Below the pieces are notes generated by a model. It ran no database searches. It was not told where the DNA came from and saw only the letters and a program-made list of their open reading frames with translations. Of a DNA stretch of 5,861 nt, positions 1 to 5,861 are shown in pieces; position 1 is the first letter of the stretch, and each line of letters opens with the position of its first letter. Source of the stretch: a virus. Its lineage: Duplodnaviria > Heunggongvirae > Uroviricota > Caudoviricetes. The stretch is taken from positions 1 through 5,861 of IMG/VR virus record IMGVR_UViG_3300029711_000171, one strand, 5' to 3'. Made by a program: the position numbers and the translations under genes.

Positions 1-181
1 GTGGGTATCCACAGAAGGTCGACTGTCAGCCTCAACCTTAACCCGCGTGCGCTGAGCCGCATTCACCACAACGCTAAGGATTCTCTCAGGTTGAAAATAC
101 TTAGCTGTTATGTGCCTGTCTTTTCACCACTTCAGGCTCGGTGGTATCCTTTTAAGCCCGTATACATAAAAGGAAAATCAA

Positions 182-427
182 ATGACTTTTGATGAAAAAG
201 AACTTGATAATGCAATTAATAAAATCATCGTAACGTCGCTCTTTTCCTGTCTCAGCGACACTCAGCAAAAACAGTTCTACGAATCGGCTTTCAACATGAT
301 CGAGCGTTGTTGTTTCTGCGATGCCGACGAGTTACCTGAAAAAATCAGGAAACAGTTGGCTGATGCTCTTCGAGTGCGACTTTCTGACCAATTTTCTGAA
401 ATGTACTCTCCGAATTTGGACAAATAG
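182..427 (+). CDS. Hypothetical small protein (81 aa), no recognisable domain
   Basis: ORF with ATG at 182 preceded by AAGGA (170..174) at about 7 nt spacing; the translation looks protein-like. Its 3' end overlaps the convergent minus-strand ORF 345..620 by 83 bp, so one of the two may be spurious. Confidence 0.4.
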   Translation: MTFDEKELDNAINKIIVTSLFSCLSDTQQKQFYESAFNMIERCCFCDADELPEKIRKQLADALRVRLSDQFSEMYSPNLDK

Positions 428-620
428 AAAAAGGCCATTTCCATTCAGGGTCTGATGGAAAGACTTCAGCCTGTTCCAAAGCACGGCGTAAAGAGAATAC
501 AACTCCAGCCATAATCTGATGTTTCCCATTGGTCCAGCTATCGCCGCTCTGATCTACAGGAGCGGCTATGTCGCATGACCAAACGACTTCACCACTATTG
601 TTTAAAATCTGGACTTTCAT
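345..620 (-). CDS. Hypothetical protein (91 aa), second gene of the leftward operon
   Basis: Minus-strand ATG at 618..620 with a GGAGG Shine-Dalgarno (complement of 633..637) that lies inside the last codons of the upstream gene 629..850, a typical operon arrangement. No domain recognised. The C-terminal third overlaps plus-strand ORF 182..427. Confidence 0.45.
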   Translation of the reverse strand: MKVQILNNSGEVVWSCDIAAPVDQSGDSWTNGKHQIMAGVVFSLRRALEQAEVFPSDPEWKWPFSICPNSESTFQKIGQKVALEEHQPTVS

Positions 621-628
621 TTTGTTCT

Positions 629-850
629 TTAACCTCCAGATTTCCGCGCATCTAAAGGCGCATTCTCATTTGGTGTGAACCGAATAGTTGTGCTGCTATT
701 GATTAATGCCCCGACACACAAGACTACGCACTCAGAGCAGATAGCAACTTCATCTTTTCCGCCTTTGGCGATGATTTTTTTTGCCTGCAGCTCGTTTGCG
801 CCACAAAACGAGCATGTGAAATAACGGTTCATTTGCGCTCTCTTACACAT
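629..850 (-). CDS. Small ClpX-type C4 zinc-finger (ClpX zinc-binding-domain-like) protein; possible alternative start at the internal Met (ATG complement of 830..832)
   Basis: The translation contains CSFCG-x19-ICSECVVLC, which closely matches the N-terminal zinc-binding domain of ClpX as I recall it ([31 protein letters not shown]). The internal Met has an AGAGAG purine-rich stretch upstream; the first ATG has no clear SD. Confidence 0.65.
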   Translation of the reverse strand: MCKRAQMNRYFTCSFCGANELQAKKIIAKGGKDEVAICSECVVLCVGALINSSTTIRFTPNENAPLDARKSGG

Positions 851-930
851 AGTATTTAACGAATCATCCGGTCATTCATACGCCACCGGCGGCTACTTCG
901 TGGGCGTCCTGCCTGTTTGTTGTTTCTCTT

Positions 931-964
931 GGGTACATTATGTATCTCATAGGTACATTGTCAA
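931..964 (-). promoter_or_regulatory. PL-like sigma70 promoter candidate overlapped by two direct GGTACATT repeats (putative left operator)
   Basis: On the minus strand: -35 TTGACA (complement of 959..964), 16-bp spacer, -10 CATAAT (complement of 937..942). GGTACATT occurs at 932..939 and 952..959, 20 bp apart, overlapping the -10 and the -35/spacer. The GTACA core is shared with the palindromes between the repressor and cro. Confidence 0.45.
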
Positions 965-968
965 GTAT

Positions 969-990
969 AAAAAAACCTGCCGAAGCAGGT
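969..990 (-). terminator. Rho-independent terminator of the repressor transcript
   Basis: Minus strand reads ACCTGC-TTCG-GCAGGT followed by TTTTTT (stem 975..980 with 985..990, loop 981..984, T-run from the complement of 969..974), about 14 nt downstream of the repressor stop at 1004..1006. Confidence 0.6.
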
Positions 991-1003
991 TCATAAACAT
1001 TGA

Positions 1004-1678
1004 TTAGGCTTTGATTTTGTATCTTCTTGGTTTTCCTGAGAAAATCACAGTTCCAATTATAGAGCAATTACCGTTGATCTTAATGTAAGGCTCAGGCCAG
1101 TTTGGGTTTAACGCTTTGAGATAACGCTGTGTCCCATCTTCTATCAACCTTTTGAAGGTGGTTTCACCTGTATCGTGCATCAATGCAATAACGTCGTCAC
1201 CGTGGCAGGCAGGTACTTCAGGATCGACAAAAATCATGTCTCCCGGGCGGTACTCATCAATCATTGAATCACCTATCACCCGCAAGATATAAGTCATTTC
1301 CCCACAGGGTACAGGGCAGGGATACGTTTCTGCTGTGCTCAAATCAACCTCAGAATATCCAACTTCTTTCCATGCTCCGGCCTGTACCCATGATATGACA
1401 GGGACTAATGTGATTTGTTTATTAGTGATTGAAACATCAGGTTTTTTTGTGATGTTCGTTGTCTGGTGTTCTTGATCGAGCCATCCGACAGGCAGGTCGA
1501 AACATTTTTCGATGTGTCGTGCCATGCTGTCACCGATATTTTTAGTAGCACCATCTCCCATAAACCTGCTGGTCTGGGTTGGCTCGCGATCAATCATAGT
1601 GGCAAAGGAAGAATTCCCGCCAACACCATCTCTCAGTTTTCTGGCGTTAGACCGCCGGATGTCATGGATTGTTTTCAT
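1004..1678 (-). CDS. Phage CI/LexA-type repressor with N-terminal HTH and C-terminal S24 peptidase (autocleavage) domain
   Basis: 224-aa ORF. The C-terminal half has the S24 hallmarks: an Ala-Gly cleavage-site candidate (VQAGAW), a serine nucleophile in the GDSM motif and a lysine in TFKRL, at LexA/lambda CI-like spacing. The N-terminal 70 aa are basic with a helix-turn-helix character. Divergent from a Cro-like gene. Confidence 0.9.
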   Translation of the reverse strand: MKTIHDIRRSNARKLRDGVGGNSSFATMIDREPTQTSRFMGDGATKNIGDSMARHIEKCFDLPVGWLDQEHQTTNITKKPDVSITNKQITLVPVISWVQAGAWKEVGYSEVDLSTAETYPCPVPCGEMTYILRVIGDSMIDEYRPGDMIFVDPEVPACHGDDVIALMHDTGETTFKRLIEDGTQRYLKALNPNWPEPYIKINGNCSIIGTVIFSGKPRRYKIKA

Positions 1679-1694
1679 AACGAAATTAAAACCC

Positions 1695-1713
1695 TTGTAC
1701 CGTTAAGGTACAA
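1695..1713. promoter_or_regulatory. Operator-like perfect palindrome TTGTACC-GTTAA-GGTACAA
   Basis: Perfect 7-bp inverted repeat with a 5-bp spacer, 17 bp upstream of the repressor start codon, in the repressor/cro intergenic region. Confidence 0.5.
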
Positions 1714-1742
1714 GTATCTTGAAGGTTCATTTTAATCATGTA

Positions 1743-1765
1743 ATATGTACACTGGAGGTACATAT
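1743..1765. promoter_or_regulatory. Operator-like perfect palindrome ATATGTAC-ACTGGAG-GTACATAT overlapping the cro promoter and RBS
   Basis: Perfect 8-bp inverted repeat with a 7-bp spacer. It overlaps a candidate -10 (TAATAT, 1741..1746; candidate -35 TTGAAG, 1719..1724; 16-bp spacer) and the GGAGG SD of cro (1754..1758). The GTACA core is shared with 1695..1713 and with the repeats at 932..959. Confidence 0.5.
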
Positions 1766-1768
1766 TGT

Positions 1769-1978
1769 ATGAAAGCGTATTGGGACTCTTTAACCAAAGA
1801 ACAGCAGGGCGAGTTGGCCGGAAAAGTTGGCTCAACACCTGGCTACTTACGGCTGGTTTTCAATGGCTATAAAAAAGCCAGTTTTGTGCTGGCTAAAAAA
1901 CTTGAGCAATGCACGTCAGGTGCAATTACGAAATCTGACTTAAGACCGGATAAAGAAACCGATTATCGCTCATGGTGA
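1769..1978 (+). CDS. Cro/YdaS-like small HTH DNA-binding protein (lytic-side regulator)
   Basis: ATG at 1769 with GGAGG 10 nt upstream. The ORF track starts at 1745, but that upstream ATG lies inside the palindrome and has no SD. The translation has the small-HTH pattern and a GAITKSDLRPD motif like Cro/YdaS-family proteins. Divergent from the S24 repressor. Confidence 0.7.
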   Translation: MKAYWDSLTKEQQGELAGKVGSTPGYLRLVFNGYKKASFVLAKKLEQCTSGAITKSDLRPDKETDYRSW

Positions 1979-2353
1979 GACACTCTCCGTACTGGAGTTT
2001 GATGAACCCACCGGGAAGGATGTCCGCGAGCTGGGGTATCCCTACCAGATGAATCAGGATGAGTCCGTCAGACTTCTGGCGCATGTGGTGTCGAAATACA
2101 TTGTGCGGCTGGCGAAAGTGCCGCAAAGCTCTGTCGACCAGATGTCTCCGGCAGACCTGAATGCAGCGGCGTGGCTTGTGGCTGGTTTTTTCCTCCAGGC
2201 CTGACGGCTGAATACCTCACTGATCGCTTCTTTGACTGCGCCAGCTACTGGCGCATTAATCCCTTCGAATTGCTGAATATGCCGATCAGTGAAATTCCCT
2301 TGCTGGTCAGTCAGGCAAACAGGATAGAGCAGGAGAAACGCACACATGGCTGA
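1944..2353 (+). CDS. Tail assembly chaperone (lambda G/GT, P2 E/E+E' type) made by programmed -1 frameshift; apparently 5'-incomplete with no in-frame ATG/GTG/TTG before codon 36
   Basis: Zero-frame open reading 1944..2204 (stop TGA 2202..2204) and a -1 frame continuing to 2353, overlapping the tape measure start at 2346 by 8 nt. The slippery heptamer T TTT TTC (2186..2192) sits 10 nt before the zero-frame stop. Position immediately upstream of the tape measure gene is the conserved chaperone location. The first in-frame ATG is at 2049 and has no SD. Confidence 0.55.
2186..2192 (+). promoter_or_regulatory. Candidate -1 ribosomal frameshift slippery heptanucleotide T_TTT_TTC
   Basis: X XXY YYZ pattern in the zero frame (TTT 2187..2189, TTC 2190..2192). 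Slipping back 1 nt gives the FFPPGLTAEYL... extension that is open to 2353. Confidence 0.5.
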
Positions 2354-4178
2354 ATTTGAGCTTAAGGCGTTGATCACCGGTGTCGACAGGCTTTCTCCCG
2401 CGCTGTCGAAAATGCAAAAGAAAATCCGGGGATTTAAACGCCAGGCGGAAGAGGCGTCACAGGGTGGGCTGGCGCTTGGTGGCGGATTGGCAGCGGGGCT
2501 GACGCTTTCCCTGAAATCTTATGCCGATCAGGAAAACGCCGCTACCGGGCTGAAAGTCGCCATGATGGATGCGAACGGCGAGGTTGGAAAGAGCTTTCAG
2601 GACATCAATAAACTGGCTATTGGCCTGGGTAACCAGCTACCCGGTACAACGGCTGATTTCCAGAACATGATGCAGATGCTGGTGCGTCAGGGGATCCCGG
2701 CAGAAAACATTCTGGGTGGTGTGGGTAAAGCGACAGCTTATCTTGCGGTACAACTGAAAAAAACACCGGAAGCGGCTGCCGAGTTTGCCGCAAAGATGCA
2801 GGATGCTACCGGAACGGCCTCAGAAGACATGATGGGGCTGTTCGACACAATTCAGAAGGCGTTTTATCTGGGCGTTGACGACACCAACATGCTGTCATTC
2901 TTCACTAAAACCAGCTCTGTTCTGAAGATGGTGAATAAGGACGGTCTTCAGGCTGCACAGAGTCTTGCCCCCATCAGTGTCATGATGGATCAGATGGGGA
3001 TGAACGGGGAGTCGGCAGGTAATGCCCTGCGAAAAGTTATCCAGTCCGGATTAAGCGTTAAGAAAATCAGGGACGTCAATAAAATCATGGCCCGCCAGAA
3101 ACTCGGGGTACAGCTCGATTTTACTGATGGCAAAGGGAGTTTTGGCGGTCTTGATAACATGTTCGGGCAACTGGCAAAGCTGCGAAAACTGACCGACGTT
3201 AAGCGAACCGGTGTACTTAAGGCAATATTTGGTGATGATGCCGAAACCCTTCAGGTGGTCAATGCACTAATCGATAAAGGAAAGGATGGCTACGATCAGA
3301 TCCAGCAGAAGATGAATAAACAGGCCAGCCTGAATAAACGTGTTCAGGCACAGCTTGGTACGCTGTCCAACCTGTGGGAGGCAATGACAGGGACCGCAAC
3401 TAACGGCCTTGCGGCTATTGGCGGCGCATTTTCTGGTGACGCTAAAAATATCACGCAATGGCTGGGGGAGTTGGGGGAAAAATTCACGAAGTTTGCGGAT
3501 GAAAATCCCCGGGTTATTCGCGGCGTCGTCGGGCTTGCTGCCGGTCTTGCGATTCTGAAACTGGGATTGATGGGCGTGGGCAGTGCCATCAGTATTGTCA
3601 GCAGGATTATGTCGATGACGCCGATTGGCATGATTGCGACGGCGATTGCTCTGGCTGCGGGATTAATTATCACTAACTGGGATGTTGTCGGACCTTATTT
3701 TAAGAAGCTCTGGGAAACCATTGGTCCTTATTTTGAGGCTGGCTGGGAACTTCTGAAGAAGGTTTTTGCCTGGTCGCCGCTGGGGATGGTGATCAATAAC
3801 TGGGGACCGGTTGTTAAGTGGTTTCAGGATATGTGGGATAAGCTGAAGCCAATTATTGAGTGGTTTACCGACAGTTCCGGTGACACGGTCGATGCCATTA
3901 ACTCTGCGCAGTGGGGCGCGGGTGCTTATGATGCTTATGGGACGGGAATACCGGCGCGGGGATACACACCTTATCCGGCGGTAGATCTGGCTCAGTCAAA
4001 CAACGCCTCCGATGCCACAGGCCCGAATCCCTTCATGATTAACAAAGCTTCTGCGCCAAAAGTTGATGGTGAGATCAAGGTATCATTTATAAATATGCCA
4101 CCAGGTATGCGGGTTACGGAAACACGCTCCAGTGGCATTGATATAAATCACGATGTTGGCTATACCCGATTTTGGTAG
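2346..4178 (+). CDS. Phage tail tape measure protein (610 aa)
   Basis: ATG at 2346 with AGGAG (2331..2335) upstream. Long Ala/Gly/Gln/Met-rich, largely helical-looking N-terminal region, a hydrophobic membrane-like segment (VIRGVVGLAAGLAILKLGLMGVGSAISIV...IGMIATAIALAAGLII), then Trp-rich repeats (GPYFKKLWETIGPYFEAGWELL...NNWGPVVKWFQDMWDKL). Sits directly after the frameshifting chaperone. Confidence 0.88.
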   Translation: MAEFELKALITGVDRLSPALSKMQKKIRGFKRQAEEASQGGLALGGGLAAGLTLSLKSYADQENAATGLKVAMMDANGEVGKSFQDINKLAIGLGNQLPGTTADFQNMMQMLVRQGIPAENILGGVGKATAYLAVQLKKTPEAAAEFAAKMQDATGTASEDMMGLFDTIQKAFYLGVDDTNMLSFFTKTSSVLKMVNKDGLQAAQSLAPISVMMDQMGMNGESAGNALRKVIQSGLSVKKIRDVNKIMARQKLGVQLDFTDGKGSFGGLDNMFGQLAKLRKLTDVKRTGVLKAIFGDDAETLQVVNALIDKGKDGYDQIQQKMNKQASLNKRVQAQLGTLSNLWEAMTGTATNGLAAIGGAFSGDAKNITQWLGELGEKFTKFADENPRVIRGVVGLAAGLAILKLGLMGVGSAISIVSRIMSMTPIGMIATAIALAAGLIITNWDVVGPYFKKLWETIGPYFEAGWELLKKVFAWSPLGMVINNWGPVVKWFQDMWDKLKPIIEWFTDSSGDTVDAINSAQWGAGAYDAYGTGIPARGYTPYPAVDLAQSNNASDATGPNPFMINKASAPKVDGEIKVSFINMPPGMRVTETRSSGIDINHDVGYTRFW

Positions 4179-4206
4179 CCAGGATTCCCCTCACAGGTAT
4201 TGCTGG

Positions 4207-4234
4207 TTGTAAGTCATAAATAGAGTGATAGAAT
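4207..4234 (+). promoter_or_regulatory. Candidate sigma70 promoter for the moron gene
   Basis: -35 TTGTAA (4207..4212), 16-bp spacer, extended -10 TGaTAGAAT (4226..4234), about 35 bp upstream of the ATG at 4270. Confidence 0.35.
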
Positions 4235-4269
4235 TAATGCACATTTAGAAAAATGTTAATAGGCGAAAA

Positions 4270-4800
4270 ATGAAAGGCTATATCACAGCAAGTGTAATTC
4301 TTGGAGCAGCGGCTATTTTTTCATCTCTCATAATCTCTGGCAACATCTCCTTTAAAGATGAACATATTATTCAGTTATCTGGAGGAGCCATAAAACTTGG
4401 TGATGTTTATAAAGAAAATAAATTGATAAGTGCAAAGATTATTTTTCCAGATAATCAGGGTGAACAGATTCTTGTTGTCGACGGCAATCCTGAAAACTTT
4501 AAGGAGGATTTTCAGGAGAAATTAAATAAAGTAATAAAAACTTTAAATGCGTCAAAGAAAAAAGATGAAGAGAAAGTTAGCCTGGATAATTTAAGTGTTA
4601 TTGAAGAGTCTAAACTAGAGCTCGTTTCTGCGGTGCGTTACTCTGCTCAGTATGTTCCTATGTTTACTCTGACGCTGGACAAAAAAGAAATTACCATGCC
4701 TAAAAATACGGTAATATTTCCATTTGCCAGCGATGAAACAGCTAAGTATTTAAATGAACAACAGCAAAAGTATAAAGATTCGTTGTTTCTGACTCGCTAA
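4270..4800 (+). CDS. Hypothetical membrane-anchored or secreted protein (176 aa), moron inserted in the tail operon
   Basis: Clean ORF, markedly more AT-rich than the flanking tail genes by eye. N-terminal hydrophobic segment (SVILGAAAIFSSLIISG) without a lipobox cysteine; the rest is Lys/Glu/Asp-rich. Flanked by its own promoter candidate and a strong intrinsic terminator. Confidence 0.7.
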   Translation: MKGYITASVILGAAAIFSSLIISGNISFKDEHIIQLSGGAIKLGDVYKENKLISAKIIFPDNQGEQILVVDGNPENFKEDFQEKLNKVIKTLNASKKKDEEKVSLDNLSVIEESKLELVSAVRYSAQYVPMFTLTLDKKEITMPKNTVIFPFASDETAKYLNEQQQKYKDSLFLTR

Positions 4801-4818
4801 TTAATAAAATTCATTACA

Positions 4819-4851
4819 AGGCCACCTTCTAATAGGTGGCTTTTTTATTTT
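4819..4851 (+). terminator. Rho-independent terminator after the moron gene
   Basis: GCCACC (4821..4826), 8-nt loop, GGTGGC (4835..4840), then TTTTTTATTTT (4841..4851), about 20 nt after the stop codon at 4798..4800. Confidence 0.75.
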
Positions 4852-4861
4852 CGGAGTGTAT

Positions 4862-5861
4862 ATGACGTGGAAAGACAGGCTTCAGGATGCGTCATTTCGA
4901 GGTGTGCCGTTTAAGGTTGAAGAAGAAAGTGCGGGAACCGGCCGTCGTGTGGAAACACACGAATATCCGAACCGCGACAAACCCTATACCGAAGATCTGG
5001 GAAAAGTCACTTTCCGCCCGTCCATCACGGCTTATGTGGTGGGAGATGACTGCTTTGACCAGCGCGATCGCCTGATTGACGCGCTGAATAAACCCGGTCC
5101 CGGCACGCTTGTCCACCCGACATACGGTGAGTTGAAAGTCTGTGTTGACGGGGAAGTTCGGGTCAGCACATCGAAGAGTGAAGGGCGTATTGTCCGCTTT
5201 GACCTGAAGTTTGTCGAAGCGGGAGATCTCTCTTACCCCACATCAGGCGTGGCGACGGCGCAGACGCTGATGTCATCCTGTTCTGCACTGGATGACTGCA
5301 TCAGTGACAGCTTCAGCGGTTTCAGTATCGATGGCGTGGCGGATTTTGTGCAGAACGACGTTATCGGTAATGCCAGCACAATGCTTGGGTATGTTTCTGA
5401 TGCGATGAAAGTGGTGGATTCTGCCGTATCGGATGCCGCCAGGCTGTTGCAGGGTGATATCTCGGTACTTCTGCCGCCGCCATCGTCAGGCAAAAATTTC
5501 GTTGAGCAGGTGCAGAAAATGTGGCGTACCGGNNNNNNNNNNNNNNNNNNNNNNNNNNNNNNNNNNNCTTTCCGGTGTCAGCCTCGGCAGCGATCTGCAA
5601 CCGCGCGGCGTCTGGAAAACGGACAGTAAAACCACCGCCACGGCGACGCAGCAGCGTAACGTGGTTGCCAGCACCCTTCGTACGACCGCAATCAGCGAAG
5701 CGGCGTATGCCGTCATCCGATTGCCTGCGCCAACAACTTCCGCGGTGATGCAGAATGCCACAGTGGGGCAGGCAACAACACCTGCGCAGAGCACCGGTTG
5801 GCCTTCCGTCACGCATCCGGCACTGAACAATGCACCGGCGGTGAAAAACACGGTTGACCTG
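4862..5861 (+). CDS. Mu gpN-like DNA circulation protein (tail/baseplate component); 3' end beyond the window; interrupted by the N-run
   Basis: ATG at 4862 with GGAG (4853..4856) upstream. N-terminus MTWKDRLQDASFRGVPFKVEEE matches, from memory, the conserved N-terminal motif of the Mu N / DNA circulation protein family. An open frame resumes after the N-run in a different frame and stays open to 5861. Follows the tape measure as in Mu-type tail operons. Confidence 0.75.
5533..5567. other. Run of 35 N (assembly or scaffold gap)
   Basis: Literal n characters in the sequence, inside the gpN-like gene. Confidence 0.99.

Follow-up and report, generated by a model that had tools for sequence, protein, structure and literature searches.

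Two overlapping convergent genes beside the repressor of an e14/SfV-type prophage: a swappable cassette of the early-left operon and its possible role

What do the small genes that adjoin a prophage repressor encode, and in which phase of the phage's life would they be made? The question is raised here by a 5,861-nucleotide stretch of tailed-phage DNA (IMG/VR record IMGVR_UViG_3300029711_000171, positions 1 to 5,861), hereafter the window, which is the immunity region of an e14/SfV-type lambdoid Escherichia coli prophage. Beside its repressor gene lie two leftward open reading frames (ORFs), 629-850(-) for a zinc-finger protein and 345-620(-) for a protein of 91 aa (p91), and a rightward ORF for a protein of 81 aa (p81) that converges on the second and overlaps its end. 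The original prediction, made from the letters alone, located both leftward ORFs correctly, took them for a coupled operon of accessory or exclusion cargo, and could not decide which of the two overlapping frames is the gene. Here we argue that both overlapping frames are genes, that the constant partner of p91 is p81 and not the finger, and that the region is the promoter-proximal end of an operon of the early-left (pL) type holding a swappable accessory cassette.

Coding capacity of the p91/p81 overlap

The two ORFs overlap by 83 nt (345-427), and the pattern of substitution among relatives assigns each part of the region to a reading frame. In the part that belongs to p91 alone (428-620) the p91 frame has the lowest ratio of nonsynonymous to synonymous variation (pN/pS) of all six frames, 0.34, and in the part that belongs to p81 alone (182-344) the p81 frame has the lowest, 0.28, with the frame of the other gene scoring 1.55-1.74 in each; variable columns fall at the third codon position in 48 of 64 cases in the former territory and in 46 of 54 in the latter. 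The codon-position pattern switches exactly at the boundaries, following p81 only at 345-365 and p91 only at 404-427, and the 38 nt that lie between average 84% nucleotide identity (72-73% where only one frame codes), with variable columns evenly low at all codon positions of both frames. Furthermore, an alignment of five diverged sequences is free of gaps over the 439 nt bounded by the ATGs of p91 and p81. It is from the pN/pS values, the codon-position patterns and this ungapped core that we take p91 and p81 both to be genuine protein-coding genes, with 38 nt constrained in both frames.

The alternative, that only one of 345-620(-) and 182-427(+) is translated and the other is an antisense shadow ORF, can draw on the fact that open frames frequently persist antisense to a gene, and on the annotations themselves: in RefSeq, PGAP has a single hypothetical protein (p91) within 182-620, both in a fully annotated locus and in the five matches listed, whereas the RAST-type annotation of vB_EcoM-720R4 has p81 and not p91. 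A shadow is hard to square with the frame-specific pN/pS minima, with third-position variability that changes frame exactly at the boundaries, or with the ATG and Shine-Dalgarno motif conserved in both genes; the evolutionary evidence already refutes this reading, and we give it next to no credence. p81 thus appears to be missing from the RefSeq annotations of the E. coli genomes examined.

The pair also travels together. p81 is present in 71 of the 72 fetched loci with p91, the lone exception being cut by an insertion sequence (IS) element, and by tblastn its frame retains 60-65% identity in loci L006-L012, always convergent with p91. Identity to p91 is 58-68% in diverged loci and falls to 34-53% in the remotest, where the convergent order persists (p91 and p81 identities of 45% and 47% in L135, 42% and 33% in L134, and 53% and 33% in L144). 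In all, convergent pairing holds down to 33-53% protein identity across eight lineages with one exception; p91 and p81 are inherited as a unit, and p81, not the finger, is the constant partner of p91. Loss of the 91-aa frame in relatives, named beforehand as the finding that would count against the original prediction, did not materialize: the frame is kept at the identities and pN/pS given above. Of 5,426 complete E. coli genomes, 503 contain the p91/p81 stretch, 98 the finger allele of the window and 83 the full arrangement.

Both proteins are small, soluble and acidic (isoelectric point, pI, of 4.95 for p91 and 4.56 for p81), and p81 has a guanine-plus-cytosine (GC) content of 40% versus 45-51% for neighboring genes. 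The lack of a recognizable domain in p91 noted originally holds across Pfam, NCBIfam and PADLOC; for p81, Pfam and NCBIfam returned no domain, the general libraries a PHROG family only, and PADLOC nothing but a chance-level match to SspC (E=0.035, 10 bits). Neither p91 nor p81 has a transmembrane-like segment on the Kyte-Doolittle scale (maximum 19-residue hydropathy 0.8-0.9), and the only hydrophobic stretch of the finger protein is the finger's own helix. An exhaustive p91 profile search of 1.84 billion proteins gave 20 matches, all of one narrow family (~17 cluster representatives), and structure predictions for p91 from alignments of 8 and 15 sequences stayed below usable confidence (pLDDT 48.7 and 62.8, respectively). 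In three loci (L008, L011 and L012) the p91 homologue is 122 aa long, some 30 codons longer, and crosses the conserved core of p81; because substitutions at the equivalent of 345-365 follow the p81 frame only, this extension looks like unconstrained antisense read-through and not a functional tail.

Table 1. Coordinates of the features discussed, in window numbering
Feature	Position	Strand	Basis or remark
Conserved 38-nt element upstream of p81 (GCCTGTCTTTTCACCACTTCAGGCTCGGTGGTATCCTT)	114..151	+	Candidate extended -10 promoter
AAGGAAA, Shine-Dalgarno motif of p81	170..176	+	In all homologues; 5-8 nt before the start codon (seven diverged loci, other cassette types)
p81, 81-aa convergent gene	182..427	+	phrog_3311 (family of unknown function); tblastn conservation, pN/pS, conserved Shine-Dalgarno motif
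p91, 91-aa gene	345..620	-	phrog_3195, E=1.6e-62 (family of unknown function); SfV orf33; PGAP: hypothetical protein
Dual-coding stretch	366..403 (38 nt)	both	p91 aa 73-85, p81 aa 62-74
GGAGG within final codons of finger gene	633..637	-	Sequence reading; 12 nt upstream of p91 ATG
ClpX C4-type zinc-finger gene, 67 aa	629..832	-	Longest ORF extends to 850; PF06689, PGAP start, homologue starts
Conserved leader of early-left RNA	860..924	-	Behind at least 4 different promoter/repressor contexts
Leader stem-loop	868..889	-	5-bp stem, 12-nt loop GGCRUAYGAAKN
Early-left promoter (pL-like)	937..964	-	TTGACA, 16-nt spacer, CATAAT; 11/12 consensus positions
Intrinsic terminator after repressor gene	973..992	-	8-bp stem, then TTTTTATACTT; SfV terminator annotation at same place
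LexA/S24-type CI repressor	1004-1678	-	Peptidase_S24, E=1.5e-26; 224/224 residues identical to K-12 e14 CohE (YmfK)
Cro/YdaS-type partner ORF	1769-1978	+	Profile searches

The zinc finger as an optional module

The finger recognized in the first leftward ORF is more precisely of the ClpX C4 type: it matches PF06689 at 41.3 bits (cut-off 27; E=1.4e-10; profile positions 2-34 of 39) and aligns to the E. coli ClpX N-domain structures 2DS5 and 1OVX, with CSFC (residues 7-10 of the 67-aa form) and CSEC (residues 32-35) corresponding to ClpX Cys14, Cys17, Cys36 and Cys39 in 2DS5. The likeness to the N-domain (1OVX, 2DS5-2DS8, PF06689) takes in neighboring residues, CSFCG...K(K/L)IA...ICSECV here against CSFCG...KLIAG...ICDECV in ClpX, but the finger of the window is phage-encoded and free-standing, without an AAA+ module. 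Identity as a ClpX unfoldase (TIGR00382/PRK05342) was rejected, with scores of 24-27 bits against cut-offs of 359-371 and only the first ~50 profile positions matching. The start of the gene is most likely the ATG at 832, not 850, because AAGAGAG lies 5 nt upstream of it (844-838), PGAP makes the same choice, and all homologues begin MN(R/N/S)Y(F/Y)TCSFCG.

Between the TAA stop of the finger gene (631-629) and the ATG of p91 (620-618) lie 8 nt (621-628), one fewer than first reported, and a site scan of this co-oriented junction found neither a promoter-like nor a terminator-like site. The GGAGG said to lie inside the end of the finger gene is indeed there, at 637-633(-); its distance from the p91 ATG is long for a Shine-Dalgarno site, and diverged p91 homologues have GAGGA 6-7 nt before the ATG instead. 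The finger gene itself is present in only 20 of the 72 p91-bearing loci and absent from 52, SfV and vB_EcoM-720R4 among those that carry p91/p81 without it. In locus L134 the open frame extends upstream of the called start, so that a whole ClpX-type finger (VSELTCSFCG...ICAGC) precedes the p91 domain in a single reading frame. Other fusions occur too: the finger is joined to other C-terminal domains in P0064 and P0066, and the p91 domain of P0072 and P0073 carries a different domain (MEFKDLP...) on its N-terminal side. Because of these fusions, we read the finger as an optional N-terminal module of "first-gene" proteins, which may be absent, separate or fused to p91; in the window it is a module split off as its own cistron, 8 nt upstream of p91. 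The L134 fusion is a Rosetta-stone case for a functional link between finger and p91. The shared orientation, close spacing, uninterrupted junction and L134 fusion support a link of the kind proposed originally, but the finger is a separable mosaic insert and not a fixed member of the unit. A literature search on free-standing ClpX zinc fingers, phage ClpX inhibitors, and the PHROG ids and accessions involved found nothing relevant.

Early-left transcription and the cassette slot

The pL-like promoter is overlapped by GGTACA half-sites at 932-937 and 952-957, the same as in the cI-cro spacer (1696-1762); half-sites of this type number 10 in the window versus 1.7 expected by chance. Because an intrinsic terminator ends the repressor gene and a promoter with repressor half-sites precedes the finger gene and p91, these are predicted to be the first genes of a repressed early-left operon and not part of the repressor's prophage-state transcription unit. 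Expression of the two would then be expected after derepression, which argues against superinfection exclusion in the lysogen. The idea of repressor-flanking accessory or exclusion cargo survives as a variable accessory slot, and finds no support as a prophage-state unit in view of the terminator (992-973) and the repressor-type promoter (964-937). Furthermore, scanning found no terminator-like site on either strand of 182-850, so pL transcription should run antisense through p81, and p81 transcription antisense into p91.

Two conserved noncoding elements bound the slot. On the promoter side, the leader of the early-left RNA contains a stem (868-889) in which 92.6% of cells are paired, the pair types including CG, UA, GC and UG, with a covariation score of 0.396, and none of 500 shuffles reached either value. 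The leader has no Rfam match and might serve in antitermination, processing or protein binding; a wider Rfam search of 1-1100 gave no score near the gathering level; single-sequence folding of the leader and of the 38-nt element does not support structure by folding energy (z-scores -1.3 to +0.8), and a candidate rightward terminator at 900-916 was dropped as its T-run is not conserved. On the other side, the 38-nt element consists of TTCACC (123-128), a 16-nt spacer, TG (142-143) and TATCCT (145-150). It is nearly invariant across 133 loci, much more so than the genes beside it, and stays almost unchanged in loci whose proteins are down to 33% identity. Two interleaved inverted repeats within it gave two compensated and three uncompensated variants in targeted scans; with covariation mixed and the variants keeping TGnTATCCT, a pseudoknot or hairpin reading was downgraded, and an extended -10 promoter for the rightward gene is probably the better reading.

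A pattern scan of viral contigs for the 38-nt element found at least 119 loci, and at least 17 unrelated sequence clusters lie behind it, each with a rightward ORF 29-36 nt after the element and a Shine-Dalgarno motif before the ORF. In most of these cassette types a leftward ORF overlaps the 3' end of the rightward one, by 4-167 nt. The slot corresponds to 152-860 of the window, other cassettes being found in loci L005 and L017-L133, and only two of the 20 cluster ORFs scanned have a Pfam domain: a rightward protein of the BssS family and a leftward ORF with a ClpX-type finger. One locus, L132, holds two tandem convergent pairs (7500-8900), bounded by the zinc-finger gene on one side and the left flank on the other. 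With the inserted pair come a 38-nt element of its own and a duplicated remnant of the 5' end of p91, which suggests cassette gain through recombination in the conserved flanks.

A close known counterpart is ymfJ/ymfI of K-12 e14, in the same slot, between the same conserved flanks and under an identical repressor protein with a conserved promoter region. There, too, a leftward first gene meets a rightward gene with a 3' overlap (63 nt in e14 vs. 83 nt here), although e14 has no zinc-finger gene, and no sequence similarity was found between YmfJ and p91 or YmfI and p81. In K-12, the increase in ymfJ (4-4.8 log2) is confined to late SOS, as is the appearance of its protein (PMC11002266), and ymfI-ymfJ is listed by ExcludonFinder as a convergent excludon with overlapping transcripts (PMC12288877). 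By analogy with this e14 pair, p91 and p81 may likewise have overlapping transcripts and mutually exclusive expression. The arrangement itself is that of an excludon, opposed neighbors with no terminator between them, and with overlapping coding ends and one partner behind a strong regulated promoter; it differs in that the overlap includes sequence coding in both frames and not only untranslated regions.

Like lambda rexA/rexB and sieB, the finger gene and p91 are accessory genes adjoining a repressor, but rexAB is cotranscribed with cI in the lysogen whereas finger and p91 lie behind a repressed promoter. RexB has been reported to limit the ClpP-dependent breakdown of lambda O, and one of the roles considered for the ClpX-like finger would be similar. 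As first pL genes the two also hold the position of lambda N; an N-type antiterminator was rejected, as p91 is acidic, starts MKVQILNNSGEVVW and is without an arginine-rich motif, as is the finger protein. No similarity to Rex, SieB or N was found in Pfam, PHROGs, PADLOC or NCBIfam. With phage morons p81 shares its small size, its variable slot, its own conserved upstream element and its lower GC content, but it has no terminator of its own, and it is bound to a partner gene and set antisense within an operon. Two further identities were set aside: a type II toxin-antitoxin pair, as p91 and p81 are convergent and neither has a Pfam or NCBIfam domain, and a known defense or SieB-type exclusion protein, as no defense model was matched above chance and neither p91 nor p81 has a membrane-spanning segment.

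Around this region, bases 1-1000 of the window match STEC309 end to end at 99.5%, in a prophage at thrW, adjoining proBA, where PGAP labels the equivalents of 629-832 and 345-620 as "ClpX C4-type zinc finger protein" and hypothetical protein; about one-third of complete E. coli genomes match some part of these first 1000 bases, mostly the flanks. Positions 1-69(-) are the 5' end of a ymfH-like gene, running leftward out of the window and annotated in STEC309 as a frameshifted pseudogene. To the right, at ~1951, the cro-like ORF passes directly into a truncated tail assembly chaperone gene and then a tape measure gene, with replication, lysis and head genes missing at this junction; none of the 5,426 complete E. 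coli genomes covers 80% of 1700-2400, and the junction is either a large internal deletion or a draft-genome assembly join. Farther on, a 176-aa ORF (4270-4800(+); GC 34%; phrog_5485, a family of unknown function) stands between the tape measure and DNA-circularization-type tail genes, is followed 3' by a hairpin at ~4821-4848 (aggccaccttctaataggtggcttttttatttt), and looks like a moron inside the tail operon. A run of N occupies 5533-5567.

A possible toggle, its competitors and its significance

The explanation we favor, at slightly less than an even chance, is that p91 and p81 form a phase-split cassette under pL control, an excludon-type toggle and a matched antagonistic pair. In the lysogen, the CohE-identical repressor would shut pL and leave finger and p91 silent, and p81 would be made from its own conserved promoter-like element (114-151). 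Upon SOS cleavage of the repressor, pL would be transcribed and finger and p91 made, and the pL transcript, antisense through p81, would shut p81 down by collision and antisense pairing. The most speculative step is that the two proteins would be antagonists, a prophage-state protein and a lytic-phase protein that neutralizes or replaces it. The ClpX-like finger might then serve as a dimerizing module that docks the p91 complex to ligands of the ClpX domain, or it might compete with the ClpX N-domain, in which case it would protect phage proteins from ClpXP.

Several observations weigh against this explanation. The finger is missing from ~80% of cassettes and is therefore not essential to p91/p81 function, and its translational coupling to p91 is, given the 12-nt GGAGG spacing, plausible but unproven. 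The p81 promoter is a consensus-level guess (8/12 positions plus TG) that was not among the sites called by the promoter scan. No domain could be detected in p91 or p81, profile searches of PDB sequences gave nothing significant for either, and Foldseek searches with p91 against PDB and BFVD gave nothing below E=0.8, so that no fold is claimed. In L143 a p91-like domain, its N-terminal part frameshifted, stands beside a YmfI-like partner instead of p81, and physical overlap could make the co-inheritance of p91 and p81 mere linkage rather than a sign of shared function.

This last point leads to the strongest competitor, which we consider rather unlikely: three independent functions, with finger and p91 acting in early lytic host takeover or anti-defense, p81 being an unrelated moron, and linkage arising only because the overlap blocks recombination. 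A hypervariable slot with so many cassette types is what an arms race would produce, the dual-coding 38 nt enforce physical linkage, L143 shows a change of partner, and p91 is acidic, as are several known DNA-mimic anti-restriction proteins. Yet the 3' overlap recurs in most of the unrelated cassette types, which suggests that the convergent layout is itself selected; pairing survives to 33% identity in eight lineages, and neither p91 nor p81 matches a defense-system model, although no anti-defense library was searched. A broader proposal, which we regard as doubtful, would extend the toggle to the whole slot: a site of cassette exchange between the pL leader and the 38-nt element, in which each cassette is a two-gene switch composed of a rightward prophage-state effector and a leftward induction-state counter-protein, locked by their 3' overlap, and the finger is a general-purpose N-terminal adaptor, either delivering the bound partner to ClpXP or protecting it from ClpXP. 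Less probable still is the reading closest to the original prediction, a finger-p91 module for the prophage state (superinfection exclusion, toxin-like or anti-defense) expressed alongside the repressor. The pair does adjoin the repressor gene on the same strand of a variable region, and comparable positions carry exclusion genes such as lambda rexAB and BTP1 bstA, but the repressor transcript ends at the terminator, finger and p91 lie behind a promoter covered by repressor half-sites, and their positional analogue ymfJ, under an identical repressor, is silent until late SOS. Nor did PADLOC match finger or p91, and the transmembrane-like segments sought in p91 and p81 are absent.

Much of what makes up this locus is already catalogued: the PHROG families and the PGAP name exist, and accessory slots of variable content, like morons and excludons, have been described before. 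The dual-coding overlap with its unannotated gene, the near-obligate convergent pairing, the finger-p91 fusion and the conserved two-flank cassette slot appear to be new. For annotation, the conflict between RefSeq, which has p91 alone, and some phage records, which have p81 alone, is settled in favor of two conserved genes, and the RefSeq annotations examined lack a real small gene, in a stretch carried by nearly a tenth of complete E. coli genomes. For function, finger and p91 move from genes "beside the repressor" to the predicted first genes switched on at induction, which changes the phenotypes worth testing, and the finger-p91 fusion, together with free-standing copies of the ClpX N-domain, offers a concrete starting point for testing how ClpXP may be exploited or disturbed by temperate phages. 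More broadly, a slot with two conserved noncoding flanks and at least 17 unrelated small-gene pairs is a candidate source of functions in phage-host and phage-phage conflict. Should the two-gene-switch proposal prove true, these cassettes would form a new class of phase-specific effector/anti-effector modules, notable for their compactness and including, for instance, defense with built-in self-immunity, and the slot would supply dozens of uncharacterized small protein pairs.

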